Shown here: positions 2,564 through 63,170 of the stretch, piece by piece
How positions within the stretch are numbered: the first letter of the stretch is position 1
How the letters are laid out: every line of letters begins with the position of its first letter
Assembly (NCBI GenBank): GCA_050250935.1
Contig: JBFWNS010000001.1
Span: 96,001 to 160,000 of the forward strand
Source of the DNA: Candidatus Margulisiibacteriota bacterium
Lineage (GTDB): Bacteria; Margulisbacteria; Marinamargulisbacteria; JBFWNS01
Length of the DNA stretch: 64,000 bases
Direction of reading: 5' to 3'
The notes under the pieces: generated by a model
The model's database searches: none
The model's input: only the letters and a program-made list of their open reading frames with translations
Told to the model about the DNA's origin: nothing
Made by a program: the position numbers and the translations under genes

Positions 2564-3277
2564 CTATCTGGTTTCTTGTTTGATTCTGGTGATCATCTCC
2601 GACAAGGTGCCGGAAGCGGTTGCTAGCATTTTTTGAAGGGTGTCTTGGGCGAAGGGCTCTTGTTCTGCTGTGCCTTGGATTTCGACAAACCGGCCGGATT
2701 CGGTCATGACCACATTCATGTCGACCTCGGCTTGGGAATCTTCTTCGTAGCATAAATCGCAGACCACTTGGCCTCGTACTACCCCAACACTGATGGCCGC
2801 CAACCATTCTTTGATCGGCGAAACCTTTAAATGACCGTTACGCTGCATCCAAACCACCGCATCATACAAGGCAATCATGCCGCCGGTGATGGCTGCAGTT
2901 CGGGTGCCGCCATCCGCTTGGATGACGTCCGCGTCGATGTGAATGGTTCGCTCGCCCAATAAATCAAAATCCAAAACAGCTCGAAGGGATCGGCCAATCA
3001 GGCGTTGGATCTCGTTGGTTCGGCCAGAGGCTTTGCCCTTGTTAACCTCGCGTTGGGACCGGGTGTGGGTGGAAGACGGCAACAGCGAATATTCTGCGCT
3101 TAGCCAACCGGTGCCTTTATCTCGCAAAAAAGGCGGTACTTTTTCCTCGATGGTGGCTGTGCACAACACCTTGGTTTCGCCAAAAGCAATCAAAACAGAG
3201 CCTGGGGCATAGCGGGTGAAGGATCGTTGGATACTGAGGGGACGCATTTCGGCGTTGGAACGGTTATCGAGTCTCAT
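2564..3277 (-). CDS. rph: Ribonuclease PH
   Basis: [53 protein letters not shown]; start set at MRLDNR. Confidence 0.97.
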
Positions 3278-4775: not shown

Positions 4776-6844
4776 CAATCCAGCTCCACTTCGAAAACAG
4801 ATTTGTAAGAGGATAACAGGGTTTGGCGCAACCCGCGATGTTGGGGGGCTTGCAGGCGGGGGTCCAATTCCCAAACCGCAGTCGCCGCCGTGTGGGCCTG
4901 GGCCAAGGTTTCTTGGTCCCTAACCAAATCCCCGACTTTAAAATCCGGCAACCCGGACTGCCGAATCCCCAATACATCGCCAGGCCCACGAATTTGAAGG
5001 TCGTGTTCGGCCAATTTAAAGCCATCGGTGGTGGACAACAGCGCTTTAATGCGTTGCTTGGCCGTATCGGTTTTGGGATCAGCAATCAAAAAACAAAACG
5101 AATCCCCTGGCCCTCGGCCAATGCGGCCCCGAAGTTGGTGCAACACCGATAGCCCAAAGCGTTCGGCATGTTGAATCACCATCACGGAGGCGTTGGGCAC
5201 ATCGATGCCCACTTCGATGACGGTGGTGGCTACCAGCACATCCAGTTCTCGGGCCTTAAACGCGGCCATGATGGCTTGTTTTTGAGCCGCCGGCAATTTG
5301 CCATGAATCAGGCCCACTTTATGGGCTTTAAAAACGGTCTGTTGCAAGGTTTCAAATCCTTCGATGGCGGATTTTAAATCTAGCTTTTCGGACTCTTCGA
5401 CCAAGGGATACACCACATACACCTGCCGTCCTTTGGCCAATTGTTCGGCACAAAACCGATAGACCTTGTCCAAGCTTTCTTCTTTAAAAAACAGGGTTTT
5501 AGGTGGGGTGCGGCCCGGTGGCAATTCCCCAATAATGGATTTTTCCAAATTCCCAAAATAGGTTAAAGACAAAGACCTTGGAATCGGGGTAGCCGTCATA
5601 AACAGGCAGTGGGGACAGCCCCCTTTGTTTCTTAAATTAAGCCGTTGCAACACCCCAAAGCGGTGTTGTTCGTCCACCACCATCAGTCCCAAATTGGCCA
5701 GCAAAACCCCCTCTTCCAACAACGCATGGGTGCCGATAACGACGCAGGGTTCGGGGGCAGCCAAGCGGTCTCGGTTTGCTTTTTTTTCTTTGGCCGTGGG
5801 TTTGCCTTTGATTAACACCGTTTCAATACCCAGGGGTGAAAGCCGTTCTTGAAACCGAAAAAAATGTTGTTGGGCCAAAATTTCGGTGGGAACCATTACC
5901 GCAGCTTTCAGACCCGATTGAATGGCAAACAAGGCGGCCATCAGGGCCACATCGGTTTTTCCAGATCCAACGTCGCCTTGAAGCAGTCGGTTCATCATGG
6001 TTGGGGTTTGGACATCGGCTGCCACATCGGCAATGGCCTGGCATTGCGCCTGGGTCAGGGCATAGCTTAATTGGGACAAATAGGCCTCGATCAAGGGACC
6101 TTGGGTTTGCAAAATAGGGCTGGGCTGGGGTTGTTTTACCGATTTTCGTTTTAACAACAAAGACAGCTGTAAAAAGAAAAACTCCTCAAACACCAAGCGT
6201 TTTCTGGCCTGCAAAAAATCGGTTCCCCCTTTTGGAAAATGTAGGGTTTGCAGGGCCCAGGGCAAGGGTTTAAGCTTGTAGGTTTGTCGCAACCCTTCTG
6301 GAAACGGTTCGTCCACCTGCCCCACAAACTGGGGGATGATGGTTTGGGCAAACTGGCGCAGTCGTTTTTGGGGCATTCCTGACACAGTTGGATAAACCGG
6401 AACCACCCGCCCCAACTGGGTTTGAAGCTCGGCCACATCGGCATAAAATTCGGCATCCTGCACCGACACTTCGGTCTCAAAAAGAGTGGCCCGCTCTACT
6501 TTTCCCCTAAAAATCAGCCACCGGCCTTCAACCACCACTTTTTTAAGGTAGGGTTGGTTAAACCAAACCAGGGTGATGGTGGTTCTGCCATCGGTTACGG
6601 CCGCTTTGATCAGGCTCATTTTTTTGGCTTTGTGCTCGATGACCCGAACAATTTGCCCAAAGGCTGTCACCACCTCGCCTTGTGGCAGTTGATTGAGGTG
6701 GGGAAGCTGACGGCGATCGTCATAGGACTTGGGGAAAAAAAACAGAAAATCCCGGACGGTGACCAACTGCAACTTCACTAGCACGTTGGCAAAATGAGGA
6801 CCAATGCCTTTGATGTACTGAAGGCTGGTGTCGAGAGCCCCCAT
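4775..6844 (-). CDS. recG: ATP-dependent DNA helicase RecG
   Basis: Wedge OB domain, QGDVGSGKT, DEQHRFG, MTATPIPRS, QLRGRIGRG, RGPG. Confidence 0.98.
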   Translation of the reverse strand: MGALDTSLQYIKGIGPHFANVLVKLQLVTVRDFLFFFPKSYDDRRQLPHLNQLPQGEVVTAFGQIVRVIEHKAKKMSLIKAAVTDGRTTITLVWFNQPYLKKVVVEGRWLIFRGKVERATLFETEVSVQDAEFYADVAELQTQLGRVVPVYPTVSGMPQKRLRQFAQTIIPQFVGQVDEPFPEGLRQTYKLKPLPWALQTLHFPKGGTDFLQARKRLVFEEFFFLQLSLLLKRKSVKQPQPSPILQTQGPLIEAYLSQLSYALTQAQCQAIADVAADVQTPTMMNRLLQGDVGSGKTDVALMAALFAIQSGLKAAVMVPTEILAQQHFFRFQERLSPLGIETVLIKGKPTAKEKKANRDRLAAPEPCVVIGTHALLEEGVLLANLGLMVVDEQHRFGVLQRLNLRNKGGCPHCLFMTATPIPRSLSLTYFGNLEKSIIGELPPGRTPPKTLFFKEESLDKVYRFCAEQLAKGRQVYVVYPLVEESEKLDLKSAIEGFETLQQTVFKAHKVGLIHGKLPAAQKQAIMAAFKARELDVLVATTVIEVGIDVPNASVMVIQHAERFGLSVLHQLRGRIGRGPGDSFCFLIADPKTDTAKQRIKALLSTTDGFKLAEHDLQIRGPGDVLGIRQSGLPDFKVGDLVRDQETLAQAHTAATAVWELDPRLQAPQHRGLRQTLLSSYKSVFEVELD

Positions 6845-7779
6845 TACCCGGCTTGAAGAATTTGATCCAGCACGGTGGTGATGTCGTCTAGGGTCCACAC
6901 ATTGGCCAATTGGCTTCGGTATTGTCGGGCCCCAGGAATGGCTTTGACGTAGGACAACAGGTGCTTTCGCATTTCTCTGGCGCCAACCTCTGGCCCTTTA
7001 CTCTCGATCATCCACTGGGCGTGTTGCAAAATTAAAGGGACTTTTTCGGCAAAGGTTTTGGGAGGCCCATCAGGGGCAAACACCCAGGGATTGCCAAAGG
7101 TGGCCTGGCCAATCAAAAACCCATCCAAATTGCCCAGTTTGGCCAAGCCATCGGCCCTGTCCTCGACCCCACCATTTCCCAAAACAGGAATCGACAGGTG
7201 ACGTTTGAGTTCGTAAATAGGGTTCCAATCGGCCGGAACATTGTAGGGTTCGACATAGGTTCTGCCATGAATACAAATCATGTTGGCGCCTGCATTTTGG
7301 GCCCCGATACCAAATTCGACCAACCCCTCGGCATTGCCCCAGCCCAATCTGGTTTTCACCGAGACCGGCAAGGCTGTTGCTGTGGCCACGGCTTCGATTA
7401 AATCAAAGGCCAGACCTTCTTTTTTGCGCAGGGCAACACCATGCTCTGATTTCACGACTTTTTTAGAGGGGCAACCCATGTTGATATCCACGCCTGTAAA
7501 GCCCATGTCTTCGCACAATTTTGCGGCTGCCACAAAGGTTTCCCTGTTTTTACCAAAAATTTGGGCCAAAATGGGTTGTTCGCTCGCATCAAAAGCCAAT
7601 TTTTGTTTAACCTTGGCTGCACTATGAAACAGCCCATCCGCCGAGGTAAATTCGGTATAGGTGATCACCTCGGGATTGACGGCTTTGCAGAGCCTTCGAA
7701 AGGCCGAATCCGAATACCCATCCATGGGTGAAACCCCGATGATGGGCTTTGGAAAGTCTTGCCAGAAATTTTTGTGCAT
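6844..7779 (-). CDS. dusB: tRNA-dihydrouridine synthase (DusB-like)
   Basis: PMDG, DINMGCP, VSVKTRLG, HGRT, GNGG motifs. Confidence 0.88.
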   Translation of the reverse strand: MHKNFWQDFPKPIIGVSPMDGYSDSAFRRLCKAVNPEVITYTEFTSADGLFHSAAKVKQKLAFDASEQPILAQIFGKNRETFVAAAKLCEDMGFTGVDINMGCPSKKVVKSEHGVALRKKEGLAFDLIEAVATATALPVSVKTRLGWGNAEGLVEFGIGAQNAGANMICIHGRTYVEPYNVPADWNPIYELKRHLSIPVLGNGGVEDRADGLAKLGNLDGFLIGQATFGNPWVFAPDGPPKTFAEKVPLILQHAQWMIESKGPEVGAREMRKHLLSYVKAIPGARQYRSQLANVWTLDDITTVLDQILQAG

Positions 7780-10008
7780 CTAGACCAATTCTGCTTCGCG
7801 GGTTTGAACCAACGCTTCAACAGCAAATTCAAAGCTTTCGTCGGCGGCTTGAAGCCGGAGGATGGGTTGAAGGGTCGTGGTCCCAATGGCTTCGTATACC
7901 AGATTTCCAGACTCCAAAATTGCGGTTACAGCCGTCATGTTTTCTCGTTTAACGGCGATCACATAGCCCCCGTTTTCGGAAAAGAGGAAGGGAACTGCGT
8001 TTTGGCTGGTGTTCAGGGTCATGCCCACCTTGGCCAAACCATGTTCGCCAACCACCATTTCAACCAGGGTTTGCCAAGCACCCCCCGAAGAAATGTCGTG
8101 GGCGGCCTGAATCAATCCTTTTTGATTGAGGGCGTACATCGCTTGATTCATGGCCTGCTCTTCATCAAAACGAACCTGGGGCGCCACCTCGGCTTCAGAG
8201 ACCCAAGGGGCCACCTGGGTTCCCCCAAATTCGGCATAGCGTTTTCCGAGCAGGATGAGCTGTAAATCGGCTTCATGAACCTGAAGGGTCACGGCTTTTT
8301 GATAGGCCTCCAGCTTGCCCACCACCACAATCACTGGGGAAGGGACAACCGCTGTGCCTTGTTTTGAATCGTTGTAAAAACTCACATTCCCCGAAATGAT
8401 GGGAATGGGTTCTCCAGGCAGGAAACTTAAGCCACGGGCAGCATCGGCAATCCCTTTAACCCCTTGTTCAAAATCAAAAAAGACGCTGGGATTTTCAGGG
8501 TTTCCATAGTTCAAACAATCCGTCAGTGCCAAGGGTCTTGCCCCAACGGCGACCACATTGCGAACCCCTTCGGCCACGGCATAGGCCCCGCTGATGTAGG
8601 GATCTACTGTGCCATACACGTTGCTGTCGATGGAAACGGCTACGGCCGCATCGCAGCCCGGAATGGGGGTTACCACACAGGCATCGGCCTCGCCAGGATA
8701 CACCACCGCATCGCCCCGAACCGCGTTATCAAAAAAGCGATACACCCGACGGAGGCTTTGGTTTTGTCTGTTCTTTAAGAGGGTCTGGGCAATGGTCTGG
8801 GCCGAGGCTTTAGCGTAAGACGGCTTGGCCTGTTTTTGAAGGGGTCTTTCTTGTTTTTGGCGCTGAACCCGAACTTCGGTGGTAATGGCATGGATGGGGA
8901 TTTCAGTGACCACTTGTTCTTTGTGAATCAGACGGTAAACCGGTTCGTTCAAGACCTCGCCCACCACCACAGCCCCGGCGTTGGGATAGAGTTCCGGTAA
9001 AGCAAAGGTCTCGTTAAAACAGGTCAAAACCTCGGGAGTAAACCATCGGGGCACGACCACACAAAAGCGTTCTTGGGTTTCAGAACAGGCAATAATTTCG
9101 GGGGATAAATTGGGAATGACCGTATTCACCGCATCCAAATGCACCACGACACCAAAGCCGCTGGCCGCTGCAATTTCAGAGGTGACGCAAGAAATGCCCC
9201 CGGCACCCAGGTCTTTAAACCCAATGGGCACCTGTTTGTCGGCCACTTGTTTTAGCATGGCTTTGATGGCCTCGACCAACACCCGTTTTAAAAAAGGATC
9301 ATGCACCTGCACGGCCCCAACATTGGTGGCCTTGTCGTCGGTGTCCAAAGTGGTGGACGAAAAACTAGCCCCACCAAATCCGGTGGCATCGGTGGATTTG
9401 CCCATTAAAATCACATCATAAGGCTCGGTTTTGGCTTGTTCGGGCACATAGCTGTGGATGATGGCATCTTCAGTGACCAATCCCAAAGCCGCAACGTTGA
9501 CCAAGCAATTGTCGTTGTACGAGGGGTGATACACCGTTTCCCCGCCCAACACGGGAACCCCCAAGGGATTGGCGTAATCGGACACCCCAAAAATGACACC
9601 CCGTTCAATTTCGCTGGCATGGTCGGAACCAACGCCAAAATGCAGGGAATTCAACACCCCAATCACATCGGCGCCCATACAATAGACGTCCCGCACCACG
9701 CCCCCTACCCCAGTGGCGGCCCCTTCCACAGGTAAAATTTGGGACGGGTGATTGTGGGATTCGTGGGAAATGGCAATGCAATACTGCTTTCCGTTGTGTT
9801 GGGCAAACCGCACAATGCCAGAATCTTCGCCAATGCCCAACGCCACCTCGGAGCCTTTGGTTGGCAAATGGGCTTTCAGAATTTCCTTGCTGCTTTTATA
9901 CGAGCAGTGTTCCGACCACATGGTATCGAAAATGTGTTTTTCAACTTCCGAAGGCACACGGCCTAAAATGGTTTCAATTTGGGCTAAATCCGAGGCAGAT
10001 AAATTCAT
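7780..10008 (-). CDS. purL: Phosphoribosylformylglycinamidine synthase II (small-type PurL)
   Basis: [53 protein letters not shown]. Confidence 0.96.
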
Positions 10009-59295: not shown

Positions 59296-60447
59296 GTGTC
59301 TAAAAAAATTTTTATCAGTGCGATAGAGCCGTCCGCAGACCTGCATGGGTCCCATTTGGTCAAAGCCCTCCTTCGCCAAGACCCCGAGCTGATCTGCTAC
59401 GGCTATGGTGGGCAGCACTTAAAGGCCACTGGCATTGCCATTTTAGATGACTTAACGGACCGCAGCACCATTGGATTTATCGAGCCTATTCGACATCTTT
59501 TTAGGTTTGCCATAGCCTATTTTCGTATTAAAAAAGAACTTCAAAAAACCAGGCCGGACTTGGTGGTGGTGATCGATGCGCAGGGATTTCACCTGCCTGT
59601 TTTAAAAGCCGCCAAAGCTCTGGGCCTAAAAACCGCCTATTTTATCACCCCCCAAGAATGGCATTGGGGCAGCGACGAAGGCGGCAAATCCGTGATTGCT
59701 GTAACCGATTTGTTGATTTGTATTTTTAAGCAAGAAGCCGAATTTTATTCGCGACTTGGGGGCCATGTAGCCTATGTGGGGCACCCGCTGGTGGATAGCG
59801 TGGTACCAAAGCTGTCCCCCGAAGCGTTGCGCAATACCCTAAACCTATCCCCTACCAAACCCATTCTGGCCATTTTTCCAGGGTCCCGAAAACAAGAGCT
59901 GGCCCTGACGGCTCCCGTGCTGCTGGAAGCCGCCAGTCTGATTTCCCGAAAAAAAGACATTCAACCTGTCATTTCGGTGGCCGCCCTGCATTTGGAACAA
60001 AAAATTCGTGCTTTGGCCATCGAGGCTCGACTGCCTTTTGCAACTTTTTATACCGGGGATTCGGCCAGCTTGATCCAAGCCGCGGATCTGTCTCTGACCA
60101 CTTCGGGCACCATTACCCTCGAGCATGCCATTTTAAAAAAACTAGCGGTGGTGGCCTATAAATTTTCGCCGCTGTCCTATCGAATCGCCAAATTTGTACT
60201 CCGTAAAAAACTAGAAAAACTTCGGTTTATGGCCCTGCCCAACATGCTGGCCGACGCCGAAATTTTTCCCGAATTTTTTCAAGACAAAGCCACAGCTTCG
60301 GCCCTAGCATCAACAGGATTGGCCCTTTTGGACGATGCAACCTTGCGCACCGAACGCCAATCCAAATTGGATGGACTACCGGCCCAACTGGGGGATCCTG
60401 GGGTTTTAGACCGGGCAGCAACAGCCTTGTTGACAACCCTTCACTAG
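59296..60447 (+). CDS. lpxB: Lipid-A-disaccharide synthase
   Basis: E.SAD, PQEW.W, VGHPL, PGSR..E, SGTITLE, LPN, PE..Q; GTG start chosen. Confidence 0.92.
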   Translation: MSKKIFISAIEPSADLHGSHLVKALLRQDPELICYGYGGQHLKATGIAILDDLTDRSTIGFIEPIRHLFRFAIAYFRIKKELQKTRPDLVVVIDAQGFHLPVLKAAKALGLKTAYFITPQEWHWGSDEGGKSVIAVTDLLICIFKQEAEFYSRLGGHVAYVGHPLVDSVVPKLSPEALRNTLNLSPTKPILAIFPGSRKQELALTAPVLLEAASLISRKKDIQPVISVAALHLEQKIRALAIEARLPFATFYTGDSASLIQAADLSLTTSGTITLEHAILKKLAVVAYKFSPLSYRIAKFVLRKKLEKLRFMALPNMLADAEIFPEFFQDKATASALASTGLALLDDATLRTERQSKLDGLPAQLGDPGVLDRAATALLTTLH

Positions 60448-60764
60448 CTTTTTTGAACGGCGTCTTCCAACCACGTGGCATAGTCGGGCAATGCTTCGGC
60501 TTGAATGGCCACAATTTGAGGCACATCGAAGGGATGATGGTCTTTGATGGCCTGCATGACAGTCGCTTGGGTTGAAGCAGGGACTTTGAACCAACACCGA
60601 ATTTCCGAAGCCGATTCCAACTGCCCTTTCCACCAATAGGTGCTGGTGATGGGGGCATCGATTTGCGCGCAGCCCGCCAGACGGTAGGCCATGATGGTAT
60701 CAACCAGGGTTTGGGCCTGGGCTTCGGTACTGACAGTGGTAAGGATGAGGGTGACTGAATTCAT
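60444..60764 (-). CDS. cutA: Divalent-cation tolerance protein CutA
   Basis: LAGCAQ, S.YWWKG, HPFDVPQI. Confidence 0.93.
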   Translation of the reverse strand: MNSVTLILTTVSTEAQAQTLVDTIMAYRLAGCAQIDAPITSTYWWKGQLESASEIRCWFKVPASTQATVMQAIKDHHPFDVPQIVAIQAEALPDYATWLEDAVQKS

Positions 60765-60774
60765 GGGATCAATA

Positions 60775-60803
60775 TTGTGATGATAAAATTCTTAAGTTAT
60801 ACT
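60775..60803 (+). promoter_or_regulatory. sigma70 promoter with no downstream plus-strand gene (antisense RNA promoter)
   Basis: TTGTGA-N17-TATACT; points antisense to the small peptide ORF. Confidence 0.65.
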
Positions 60804-60809
60804 GGAACT

Positions 60810-60905
60810 CAGCTTGTAGCTTACCAGGAAAACGGCGAAACCTGGCAAGCCTTACTGGTGGTCTTGACTAATGCTGGCGAGCAATTAACATCAAGACCAC
60901 CAAAA
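60810..60905 (+). ncRNA. Putative antisense (antitoxin) RNA; 3' end unknown
   Basis: Starts just downstream of the promoter; covers two hairpins overlapping the peptide ORF 3' end. Confidence 0.45.
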
Positions 60906-60960
60906 GTGAAACAATAAGTTCGATAATCTCGCCTACTGTTAATTCAACTTTTAGTTTGAT
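60868..60960 (-). CDS. Putative 30-aa type I toxin-like membrane peptide (ATC start)
   Basis: AGGAGGT SD 6 nt before ATC; (M)KLKVELTVGEIIELIVSLLVVLMLIARQH; in-frame GTG at 61011 gives a 47-aa alternative without SD. Confidence 0.6.
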   Translation of the reverse strand: MKLKVELTVGEIIELIVSLLVVLMLIARQH

Positions 60961-61068
60961 GTCAACACCTCCTCTCTTATAACTCGAGGGGTTGAGAGGT
61001 GCTCGTCGCACTAGCGCCGTTTCGATAAAGCTTACACGACGGCAGTTATTCTGGAAATATTTTTATTT

Positions 61069-61479
61069 TTATATAAAAGATACTTGTTCTTCAAAAAAAG
61101 CCTTGTCTTTGGGATGACTTAGTTTGTCGGCAATGTCGGCTTTGTCCAGCCACAGGGCTTCGGGGTTTTCGGGATCGGTTGGGGCCAATTCGGTTTGGGT
61201 GGTGGTGAATAAAAAGAATTCGATGCGTTTAAGCTCTGAGTGGTCTTCCCCACCATTTTTGCCAATGCGATACCGTTCGTAAAACCCCAGGTAACGCACC
61301 AAGGTGAGGTCCGTCACACCGGTTTCTTCGGCAATTTCTCGCTTGGCTGCATCAAGCAGGGTTTCGCCAGGGTCCACGTGGCCTTTGGGCAAGGACCACG
61401 AGGTGCCATGTTGGCAGGTGATAAGCACCTGCCCATGGCGATTAAGGACAATGCCACCCGCGCTGATGGTTTTTTCCAT
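61069..61479 (-). CDS. NUDIX hydrolase
   Basis: SAGGIV, WSLPKGH, AAKREIAEETG. Confidence 0.93.
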   Translation of the reverse strand: MEKTISAGGIVLNRHGQVLITCQHGTSWSLPKGHVDPGETLLDAAKREIAEETGVTDLTLVRYLGFYERYRIGKNGGEDHSELKRIEFFLFTTTQTELAPTDPENPEALWLDKADIADKLSHPKDKAFFEEQVSFI

Positions 61480-63170
61480 CAGAACAGGTTTTTGTCGGTG
61501 ACAGCGCCTTCGGAGGCTGAAGTCGTCAGTTTGGCAAATTTGGCCAAGACCCCACGGGTGTAACGGGGCGCTGGTTGCTTCCAGGCTGCCAACCGGGCTT
61601 GAAGTTCAGCATCGGGAACGTGAACATTGACCTCGTGTTTTTCGGCATCGATGGTGATGGTATCGCCGTTCTGAATCACGGCAATCACCCCACCGTCAAA
61701 GGCTTCTGGTGTGATGTGTCCCACCACAAAACCATGGGTTCCGCCTGAAAATCGGCCGTCGGTAATTAAGGCAACATCCTTGCCCAGGCCACGACCCATC
61801 ACCGCCGAGGTTGGGGACAACATTTCCCGCATCCCAGGTCCGCCTTTAGGACCTTCATAGCGAATGACGATCACGTCGCCTTTAACAATCCCGCCATCCA
61901 AAATGCTTTTGAGGGCTGCTTCTTCCGAATCAAACACCTTGGCCTTACCTTCAAATTTGAGGCCTTCTTTGCCAGAAATTTTGGCGACGCCGCCCTTAGA
62001 CGCCACGTTGCCGTAACACACCACCAAATGCCCTTGCGATTTGATGGGATTGGACAAGGGACGAACCACTTCTTGACCCGTGGGATAAGGCGCAACATCG
62101 GCCAAGTTTTCGGCAAGGGTTTTGCCCGTCACCGTCAGACAATCGCCATGCAGCAACCCAGCGTCCAATAAAATCTTCATCAAAGGGGTCACACCACCAA
62201 TTTCCACCAACTTGGACATGGTAAACCGGCCGCTGGGTTTTAAATCCGCCAACACCGGTACTTTTTGACCAATACGGGTAAAATCGTCCAAGGTTAGGGG
62301 AATACCAGCCGTATGGGCAATGGCCAACAAATGCAGCACGGCGTTGGTGGATCCTCCCAAAGCCGTGACCACCACAATGGCATTTTCCAAGGACTTTTTG
62401 GTGACGATATCCAAGGGTTTTAAATTGGCTTGAAGCAAGGCATAAACGGCTTTTCCCGCGTTACGACAGTCTTCTTTTTTATGCTCGGAAACCGCCGCTT
62501 GGGCCGAACTATTTGGCAAACTCAGCCCCATGGCCTCGATGGCCGATGCCATGGTGTTGGCCGTGTACATACCCCCACAAGAACCAGGGCCTGGAATCGC
62601 ACATTTTTCGACTTCTGTCAGTTCGGCAGCATCGATTTTGTTGTTGGCAAATGCCCCGACGGCTTCGAAAACAGAGACCACATCTTGGTCTTTGTTTTTG
62701 TGGCATCCTGGCAAAATGGTCCCGCCATATACAAACACGGAGGGACGGTTCATCCGCAACATGGCCATGACACAGGCCGGCATGTTTTTGTCGCAGCCCC
62801 CAATGGCCACAAACCCATCCAAATTTTCGCAACCCACCACCGTTTCGATGGAATCGGCAATGACTTCTCGGGAAACCAGGGAATATTTCATGCCTTCTGT
62901 TCCCATGGAAATCCCATCAGAAATCGTGATGGTGTTAAAAATAATGGCTTTTCCACCCGCTTCGTTAGCCCCAGCTTCGGCTTCTCTGGCCAAGCCATCG
63001 ATGTGCATATTACACGGGGTTACCATACTCCAGGTCGAAGCAATCCCGATTTGGGGTTTGTTAAAATCCTCGTCGTTAAAGCCCACGGCCCGCAACATGG
63101 CGCGGGAAGGGGCTCGGTCGTAGCCGTCTGTCATCTGAGAAGAAAAATGTCGGGGGTTGTGTGAGCTCAT
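61479..63170 (-). CDS. ilvD: Dihydroxy-acid dehydratase
   Basis: [46 protein letters not shown]. Confidence 0.98.

Follow-up and report, generated by a model that had tools for sequence, protein, structure and literature searches.

In the sections of PMC8594479 and PMC6733600 considered here, two features are singled out as the key determinants of mRNAs for type I toxins: hairpins between the Shine-Dalgarno (SD) sequence and an anti-SD, and long-distance interactions between the 5' and the 3' end. The aapA/IsoA systems of Helicobacter pylori are present in several chromosomal copies and encode a peptide of about 30 residues; their aapA mRNA contains local anti-SD hairpins in addition to a 5'-3' long-distance interaction and is activated by trimming of its 3' end (PMC6733600, same sections). 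The 3' partner of this interaction is the anti-SD itself, and IsoA is described as lying inside the mRNA and overlapping the ORF (PMC8594479, same sections). For hok/Sok and its relatives pndA and srnB, the sources describe an inert full-length mRNA with its 5' end paired to its 3' end (PMC6733600) and an antisense RNA, Sok, acting at the 5' side (PMC8594479). Hok is a peptide of about 50 amino acids assigned to a Pfam family, and mok overlaps its start region. Franch et al. reportedly found in 1997 that the 5'-3' pairing of hok gives an inert mRNA and that 3' processing triggers its refolding. A different arrangement is given for TxpA/RatA and BsrG/SR4 of Bacillus subtilis, in which a convergent 3' antisense RNA overlaps the end of the ORF (PMC8594479, sections considered here). 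Both are Gram-positive systems whose antitoxins possess terminators. To our knowledge, an extra 5'-3' lock has not been described for either of them.

According to the section of PMC12390103 considered here, type I systems are so far reported only from Proteobacteria, Firmicutes and Tenericutes plus one cyanobacterial (Microcystis) candidate, and part of PMC5367252 discusses why this range looks so narrow. The candidate outside the classical phyla, MsoT1/MsoA1 of Microcystis aeruginosa, comprises a toxin of 63 residues with two predicted helices, tested in E. coli, and a cis antisense RNA that covers the 3' UTR together with the adjoining end of the coding region (PMC12390103, same section). 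No report of "type I toxin-antitoxin" together with Margulisbacteria was found in the literature searched.

The locus investigated here lies within a 64,000-nt stretch of a Candidatus Margulisiibacteriota genome (contig JBFWNS010000001.1, positions 96,001 to 160,000; in the following, the window). There, a 304-nt spacer separates two minus-strand genes, cutA (60444-60764) and a NUDIX gene (61069-61479); a preliminary description had proposed a type I toxin-antitoxin-like locus for this spacer. The spacer hosts one of six own-genome copies of a conserved, structured module of about 205 bases on the minus strand. These modules form a real, conserved and lineage-restricted family; very probably they are small mRNAs for a membrane peptide, and as judged from sequence comparison they most likely provide the toxin part of a type I toxin-antitoxin-like family that is new. 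The elements of the window copy are as follows.

61052-61057, minus strand: -35-like hexamer TTTCCA, read in the sequence; predicted promoter of the module RNA
61029-61034, minus strand: -10-like hexamer TAAGCT of the same predicted promoter
60816-61022, minus strand: predicted transcript of about 205 nt (toxin-type mRNA) with inferred ends
61015-61022, minus strand: 5' element AAACGGCG, complement of the H4 loop (inverted repeat I4)
60994-61001, minus strand: anti-SD CACCTCTC, 5' arm of hairpin H1
60966-60976, minus strand: purine tract GAGAGGAGGTG with SD AGGAGGT, 3' arm of H1
60868-60960, minus strand: 30-codon frame IKLKVELTVGEIIELIVSLLVVLMLIARQH followed by TAG; codon 1 (ATC) aligns with the GTG start of copies C8b and C2a
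60909-60939, minus strand: hairpin H2, within the N-terminal half of the frame
60855-60903, minus strand: hairpin H3, with a stem of 12-13 bp (60891-60902/60856-60867) and the last codons plus stop as loop
60819-60850, minus strand: hairpin H4, with a 10-bp stem and the 12-nt loop TTTCGCCGTTTT (60829-60840), complementary to the 5' element
60775-60803, plus strand: promoter-like site TTGTGA-N17-TATACT, 9 of 12 matches, aimed across H4 and H3; hypothetical antitoxin promoter

In its working, the module would find its closest parallels in aapA/IsoA and hok/Sok with respect to the 5'-3' lock, and in TxpA/RatA and BsrG/SR4 with respect to a convergent 3' antisense RNA; it is a member of none of these four. 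With aapA/IsoA it shares the peptide length of about 30 residues, the several chromosomal copies and the combination of a (here predicted) long-distance interaction with anti-SD pairing, yet without sequence similarity (no Pfam or Rfam match). The predicted architecture also differs: the complement of the H4 loop is found in the 5' terminus and not in the SD tract, so that the 5' terminus would dock into a hairpin loop and a nearby anti-SD would sequester the SD, and the only antisense promoter-like site common to the copies lies beyond the 3' end rather than inside the mRNA. As in hok, the 5' end would pair with the 3' end. In place of mok, out-of-frame mini-ORFs occur in three of the six complete copies, and a coupling role for them is pure conjecture; the peptide is without a Pfam match at E<=10, unlike Hok, and the antisense RNA is predicted at the 3' side, unlike Sok. 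The overlap of a convergent antisense RNA with the ORF end known from the two Bacillus systems is predicted for the module as well, whereas its antisense RNA is hypothetical and has no Rfam match. MsoT1 is unrelated in size and architecture, and the module, in contrast to it, is known from sequence alone.

The preliminary description had suggested a search for further copies and a covariance model built from homologues; both were carried out and extended the family. BLASTN of the spacer against its own genome (1.95 Mb, 17 contigs) returned copy 2 on contig C4 with 74% identity, and a profile of the first two peptides retrieved copy 3 on C1 as well as a single copy in G003, a genome belonging to the same class. 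A covariance model (R1) based on the 3' domain of these four sequences pointed to three further places in the own genome. Reading of these matches identified C8b and C2a as complete but divergent copies and C8a as a 5'-truncated remnant. The own genome thus harbors five complete copies and a truncated one, and the six complete copies considered below are the five own-genome copies plus that of G003. Peptide profile and R1 together yielded convincing members in only two of the 146 phylum genomes covered. When the spacer was compared by BLASTN with 40 genomes of the same class, no credible match was obtained beyond the own genome. An orthologue of the window copy, ~90% identical and located at the same cutA-NUDIX site, was detected on a 573-nt metagenome contig (X3); it differs by 52 substitutions and four indels, and the substitution readings given below cover 37 of these 52. 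The same run contains a copy-2-like contig as well. Among the sequencing runs listed for the locus there was no RNA run. The evidence base of the family consequently amounts to two genomes and one metagenome contig, with paralogues that are not independent of each other. The flanking genes differ at every copy and include genes for MazG-like and SepF-like proteins, a ComEA-like protein, tRNA-Leu and HExxH proteins. Because these contexts are unrelated, the module is self-contained and not a leader of cutA.

Several candidates were discarded in the course of these searches. What the covariance model matched in further genomes (best E 0.059, 0.10 and 0.18) lacks the architecture, and peptide matches in genomes G107 (E 0.009) and G042 (E 0.035) were not counted as members. 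The G042 frame (G042:C13:3124-3177, minus strand, locus L085), ending in NLKLDVHELLKLLTLLLLLASF, resembles the family peptides; without stems and without SD it was left out, and it possibly forms the end of a longer ORF. An IUPAC pattern for the four subfamily-A frames matched three stretches of metagenome contigs, all by chance in unrelated frames. Within genome contigs the same pattern was found solely on the G003 contig already known, and neither it nor a subfamily-B stem pattern occurred in viral contigs.

Each complete copy is preceded by a promoter-like site that matches the consensus at 7-9 of 12 positions. In the window it reads TTTCCA-N17-TAAGCT (7/12); copy 3 carries the TTTCCA hexamer at the same place, and no change in this promoter is among the X3 substitutions read. 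The -10-like hexamers of the six complete copies (TAAGCT, TATACT in three, TACAGT and TACTAT) end 5-7 nt before the 5' element. By number, promoter-like sites in the 1.2-kb region are not above chance (2 vs 1.0 +/- 0.9 in shuffles). The transcript start was deduced from the -10 position and the end was set just past H4, after which no intrinsic terminator follows. On the same strand, GTTCCA-N17-TATCAT (60780-60808), ending ~15 nt before the cutA ATG, represents a plausible cutA promoter. Its -35 region and that of the module form a 13-nt direct repeat with one mismatch (60795-60807 and 61044-61056).

The structure of the window copy exceeds chance, with MFE z-scores of -4.75 and -5.16 in two runs for the minus-strand RNA and -3.74 for the plus strand. 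Sense z-scores ranged from -4.1 to -6.9 in four of four copies, each being below the antisense value (-1.6 to -4.9). The single G-U pair of H4, which is available on the minus strand only, agrees with the earlier statement that G-U pairs favor folding of this strand. When four sequences were aligned with MAFFT, standard pairs made up 94.3% of the 140 pair cells, compared with at most 51.1% when the partners were slid. In total 14 of 35 pairs had changed on both sides, and the covariation score was reached by none of 500 shuffles, with the structure having been derived from the same few sequences that entered this test. Helix 1, located in H2, contributes six pairs, two of them changed on both sides. 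The perfect 12-bp inverted repeat described before (60856-60867/60891-60902, I1), which encloses the TAG stop codon at 60870-60868, was recovered as the H3 stem, and across the complete copies 10-13 bp are retained around the stop codon. Over seven sequences, 92.9% of the H3 cells were paired and 6 of 12 pairs had changed on both sides. In X3, the H3 pair 60859/60899 is exchanged from T-A to C-G. A measure of further pair types in H3 was not above shuffles (reached by 475 of 500). The previously noted 10-bp hairpin 60841-60850/60819-60828 is likewise present as H4 (helix 5), in which 8 of 10 pairs had changed on both sides and 100% were paired.

In all six complete copies a perfect complement of 6-9 nt to the H4 loop is placed 6-8 nt after the -10-like hexamer. 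The 5' element and H4 loop read AAACGGCG/CGCCGTTT, AAAACGGAG/CTCCGTTTT, GACGGAC/GTCCGTC, GCAGTC/GACTGC, AAAACGGAC/GTCCGTTTT and AACGGAG/CTCCGTT. Four different sequence versions of the 5'-3' pairing are distinguished, three among the own-genome paralogues and the fourth in G003. Shuffling of the loops attained the observed complement length in 40-640 of 20000 trials. A match to an RNA outside toxin-antitoxin systems, such as 6S, had been named beforehand as evidence against the proposed reading, and it was looked for. Scanning window positions 60300-61500 against Rfam at E<=10 returned a chance lncRNA fragment outside the element, five other loci scanned against Rfam 15 at E<=1 gave two tRNAs, and neither tRNA nor tmRNA was found at the window locus. 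The suggestion of a new family is hence borne out, as no Rfam, Pfam or NCBIfam family matches.

The SD sequence AGGAGGT resides at 60973-60967 (minus strand), exactly as first described. Its proposed upstream partner GCACCTCTC is indeed present at 61002-60994; the pairing with the SD tract takes two alternative 6-bp registers rather than a single 9-bp helix, CACCTC/GAGGTG or CCTCTC/GAGAGG, the latter recognized by eye. The anti-SD is unaltered in copy 2 and X3 while the loop between the arms varies, and it is located 6-24 nt upstream of the SD tract. Variants of both arms match each other (CACCTC/GAGGTG, CTCCC/GGGAG, ACCACCT/AGGTGGT and ACCCCCT/AGGGGGT), and for C2a the pairing of C-run and G-run appears in the MFE fold. 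The ribosome-binding site is thus computationally predicted to be occluded by the anti-SD and/or the 5'-3' interaction, as in mRNAs of type I toxins. SD usage in the genome is conventional: among 139 GGAG cases upstream of long ORFs, 101 have the motif 5-8 nt before ATG. In the window copy, GGAG stands 8 nt before ATC.

This ATC is the first codon of the 30-codon ORF of the preliminary description, of which the frame itself (60960-60871) was confirmed and a canonical start was not, since it begins with ATC instead of ATG, GTG or TTG. Codon 1 is ATC in copies 1 (the window copy), 2 and X3, GTC in copy 3 and G003, and GTG in C8b and C2a; five of seven frames therefore have ATC or GTC, and a canonical start is confined to C8b and C2a. 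In these two, a G-rich SD is followed 6-7 nt on by GTG, and the peptides begin MKIEIKLSF and MKIGFEFTV. A longer frame of 47 amino acids from GTG 61011, the sole upstream in-frame ATG/GTG/TTG, was rejected because of a stop in copy 2, seen by reading also in X3. The in-frame GTG or ATG three codons upstream abuts or is part of the SD tract, and in the window copy a spacer shorter by 1 nt puts the upstream GTG out of frame. With ATC at the homologous start position, the window copy would be either weakly translated from a near-cognate codon or silent. Out-of-frame mini-ORFs at or just after the SD were noted in the window (GTG TTG ACA TCA AAC TAA, 60951-60968, minus strand), in G003 (ATG TCA GAA TAG, locus L017) and in copy 3 (seven codons, locus L027).

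Loss of the ORF with the structure retained had been considered a possible outcome; instead, the frame is open in all copies and stops at the same place. All four X3 indels fall outside ATC to stop, and within the frame four codons carry synonymous and five carry conservative changes among the 37 of 52 substitutions read. Codon position 2 was the least variable in six of six pairs, synonymous codon differences numbered 32 in frame compared with 19 and 10 in the shifted frames, and NG86 dN/dS was below 1 in five of six computable pairs (0.68 for copy 1 vs copy 2, ~1 for copy 2 vs copy 3). Nearly the whole frame also lies in helices. The bases that directly follow codon 1 show conservation at third positions as well (nTCAnAnTAnA, invariant in the four subfamily-A copies), which points to a constraint on the RNA rather than on coding; together with the mini-ORFs, it might reflect dual coding, coupling or a pairing site. 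On balance, we consider it likely that the frame is translated. In agreement with the claimed single hydrophobic helix, the family peptides have a hydrophobic-helix profile with GRAVY 0.9-1.6, in frames of 29-31 codons on predicted RNAs of 194-216 nt (-10 hexamer to H4). This falls within the range of type I toxins, i.e., hydrophobic peptides below 60 amino acids on mRNAs of 150-400 nt (PMC8594479, sections considered here).

Five versions of the peptide were searched against Pfam and NCBIfam without any family at E<=10. Among the models that we take to represent the known type I toxin families (Hok_Gef, Ldr, TisB, Ibs and Fst), none was matched. A profile search of 1.84 billion protein representatives returned zero matches at E<=0.001, weak evidence given that such small frames are rarely called as genes, and look-alikes in the ESM Atlas (scores <=0.81) were uninformative.

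Regarding the antitoxin, the plus-strand site TTGTGA-N17-TATACT was found as described before, whereas its support as an antitoxin promoter weakened on closer inspection. An equally good match arose in 390 of 3000 shuffles (13%) of the surrounding 65 nt, the site faces and overlaps the plausible cutA promoter, and in X3 both hexamers are altered (TTGTGG...TATGCT). An opposite-strand promoter-like site is located 9-27 nt outside H4 in six of six copies, 9 of 12 matches being reached in only three (window, G003 and C2a). Local shuffles equal the six sites in 390, 633, 586, 200, 440 and 36 of 3000 cases (1-21%); the sites are therefore individually unremarkable and only their shared position is suggestive. 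A terminator for an antisense RNA was not evident in the copies except for a U7 run in C2a, where the H4 complement followed by U7 would give an RNA of ~40 nt with a loop equal to the mRNA 5' element. Further inside the window copy, a second antisense promoter-like site (TTGACT-N16-TAACAT, 60864-60891, plus strand) overlaps the stop codon with its -35 and has a twin in copy 2 (L002 1660-1633, minus strand) with AATCAT as -10; an RNA started there would span the SD and the N-terminal half of the frame. As a shared feature it was dismissed, being restricted to copies 1 and 2 and absent by eye from copy 3 and G003.

Three other explanations need to be weighed against a type I system. The module could be a gene for a non-toxic small membrane peptide without antisense partner, the mRNA structure tuning stability and low translation as for other bacterial small membrane proteins. 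All frame and structure evidence fits this equally well, and so do the weak antisense promoter evidence and the antisense terminator not being seen. Yet five complete and one decayed copy at unrelated sites of a 1.95-Mb genome, the patchy distribution (2 of 146 genomes), start codons that are weakened and two mechanisms that would silence translation are together, in our view, typical of toxic, selfish modules and not of housekeeping small proteins, so that we regard a non-toxic peptide as unlikely, at odds that nevertheless deserve attention. Further down in probability, and quite unlikely in our estimate, is a family of non-coding structured sRNAs in which the frame is a by-product of U-rich helices and the SD-like tract with its partner just another helix. 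It would account for an "ORF" lying almost entirely within H2 and H3, a codon 1 other than a start codon in five of seven frames, conserved third positions after codon 1, dN/dS near 1 in some pairs and the lack of homologous annotated proteins among 1.84 billion representatives. It does not sit well with SD-N6/7-GTG exactly at codon 1 of two divergent copies, an open frame with the same stop position in all copies and indels only outside it, or a most conserved second codon position, commoner synonymous changes in frame and a hydrophobic-helix profile.

A REP/BOX-like intergenic repeat or a cis-acting cutA leader was already disfavored and is highly improbable. The location of the module immediately before cutA, in the same orientation and with no intervening terminator, would suit a leader, but other copies precede convergent or unrelated genes (sepF-like, comEA-like, tRNA-Leu), each copy has its own promoter-like site and SD-led frame, and flanking target duplications common to the copies are missing. 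Direct repeats that might be read as target duplications flank copy 1 only (13 nt with one mismatch); this reading was rejected, as the other copies have no such repeats in common. The type I layout of the preliminary description accordingly stands in its toxin-mRNA half, which is well supported by multiple copies with their own promoter-like sites, the covarying anti-SD and 5'-3' pairing and the conserved hydrophobic frame, and falls short in its antitoxin half, for which the case is weak in view of faint promoter-like sites, the overlap with the cutA promoter, the X3 changes and the lack of an evident terminator. Overall, the module probably represents a new type I toxin-antitoxin-like family, and for the full reading with mRNA, predicted antisense RNA and peptide we see the chances as evenly balanced.

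If the module is such a type I system, its course might be envisaged as follows. Transcription from a sigma-70-type promoter would begin precisely at the 8-nt 5' element, whose complementarity to and covariation with the H4 loop suggest that the two pair, closing the RNA as the long-distance interactions of the hok and aapA mRNAs do. The upstream anti-SD, with its covarying complementarity, would hold the SD tract in a local hairpin. Owing to both the 5'-3' closure and the SD sequestration, the full-length RNA is proposed to be stable and poorly translated. Once the 3' hairpin is trimmed or H1 opens, the ~30-residue peptide could be synthesized. It carries an alternating charged/hydrophobic N-terminus and a hydrophobic segment of 16-18 residues, and insertion into the inner membrane with damage to it is predicted. 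A convergent RNA that starts a few nt beyond H4 would have complementarity to both H4 and H3, would present in its loop the same sequence as the mRNA 5' element, and might pair with the 3' part of the mRNA, leading to cleavage by RNase III or a block of translation. Genes for RNase III and PNPase are present in the genome.

Taken to its most specific form, the type I reading describes a family of new design in a phylum without cultured members: an mRNA locked by its 5' end docking into the 3'-hairpin loop, an antitoxin in the form of a short convergent RNA whose loop, identical in sequence to that 5' end, acts as a mimic competing for the hairpin loop, and one subfamily with a toxin started at AUC/GUC, keeping its synthesis at trace level. 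We offer this combination as a long shot. A covariation-supported family in Margulisbacteria would widen the type I range and would show that mRNA architecture finds such loci where peptide homology cannot. The six paralogues and the G003 copy, part of them with a replaced start codon, would provide a natural series on how 5'-3' locks and weak starts restrain toxic peptides.

The surroundings of individual copies deserve mention. Locus L081 (G000:C8:5500-14500; items at 570-2243, 2321-2523, 5128-6816, 6850-6984 and 6949-8997) comprises two paralogous genes for HExxH-motif proteins of ~560 amino acids with a module copy after each; one of these copies is complete and the other is the 5'-truncated remnant, on the opposite strand and overlapping a ComEC-like gene at its 3' end. 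A ComEA-like gene adjoins copy 3. The copy on contig C330 of G003 (L017; items at 1292-1382, 2607-2676 and 2741-3049) is found between tRNA-Leu and tRNA-Arg genes beside a small ORF resembling a nucleotidyltransferase domain, a setting that looks like an island.
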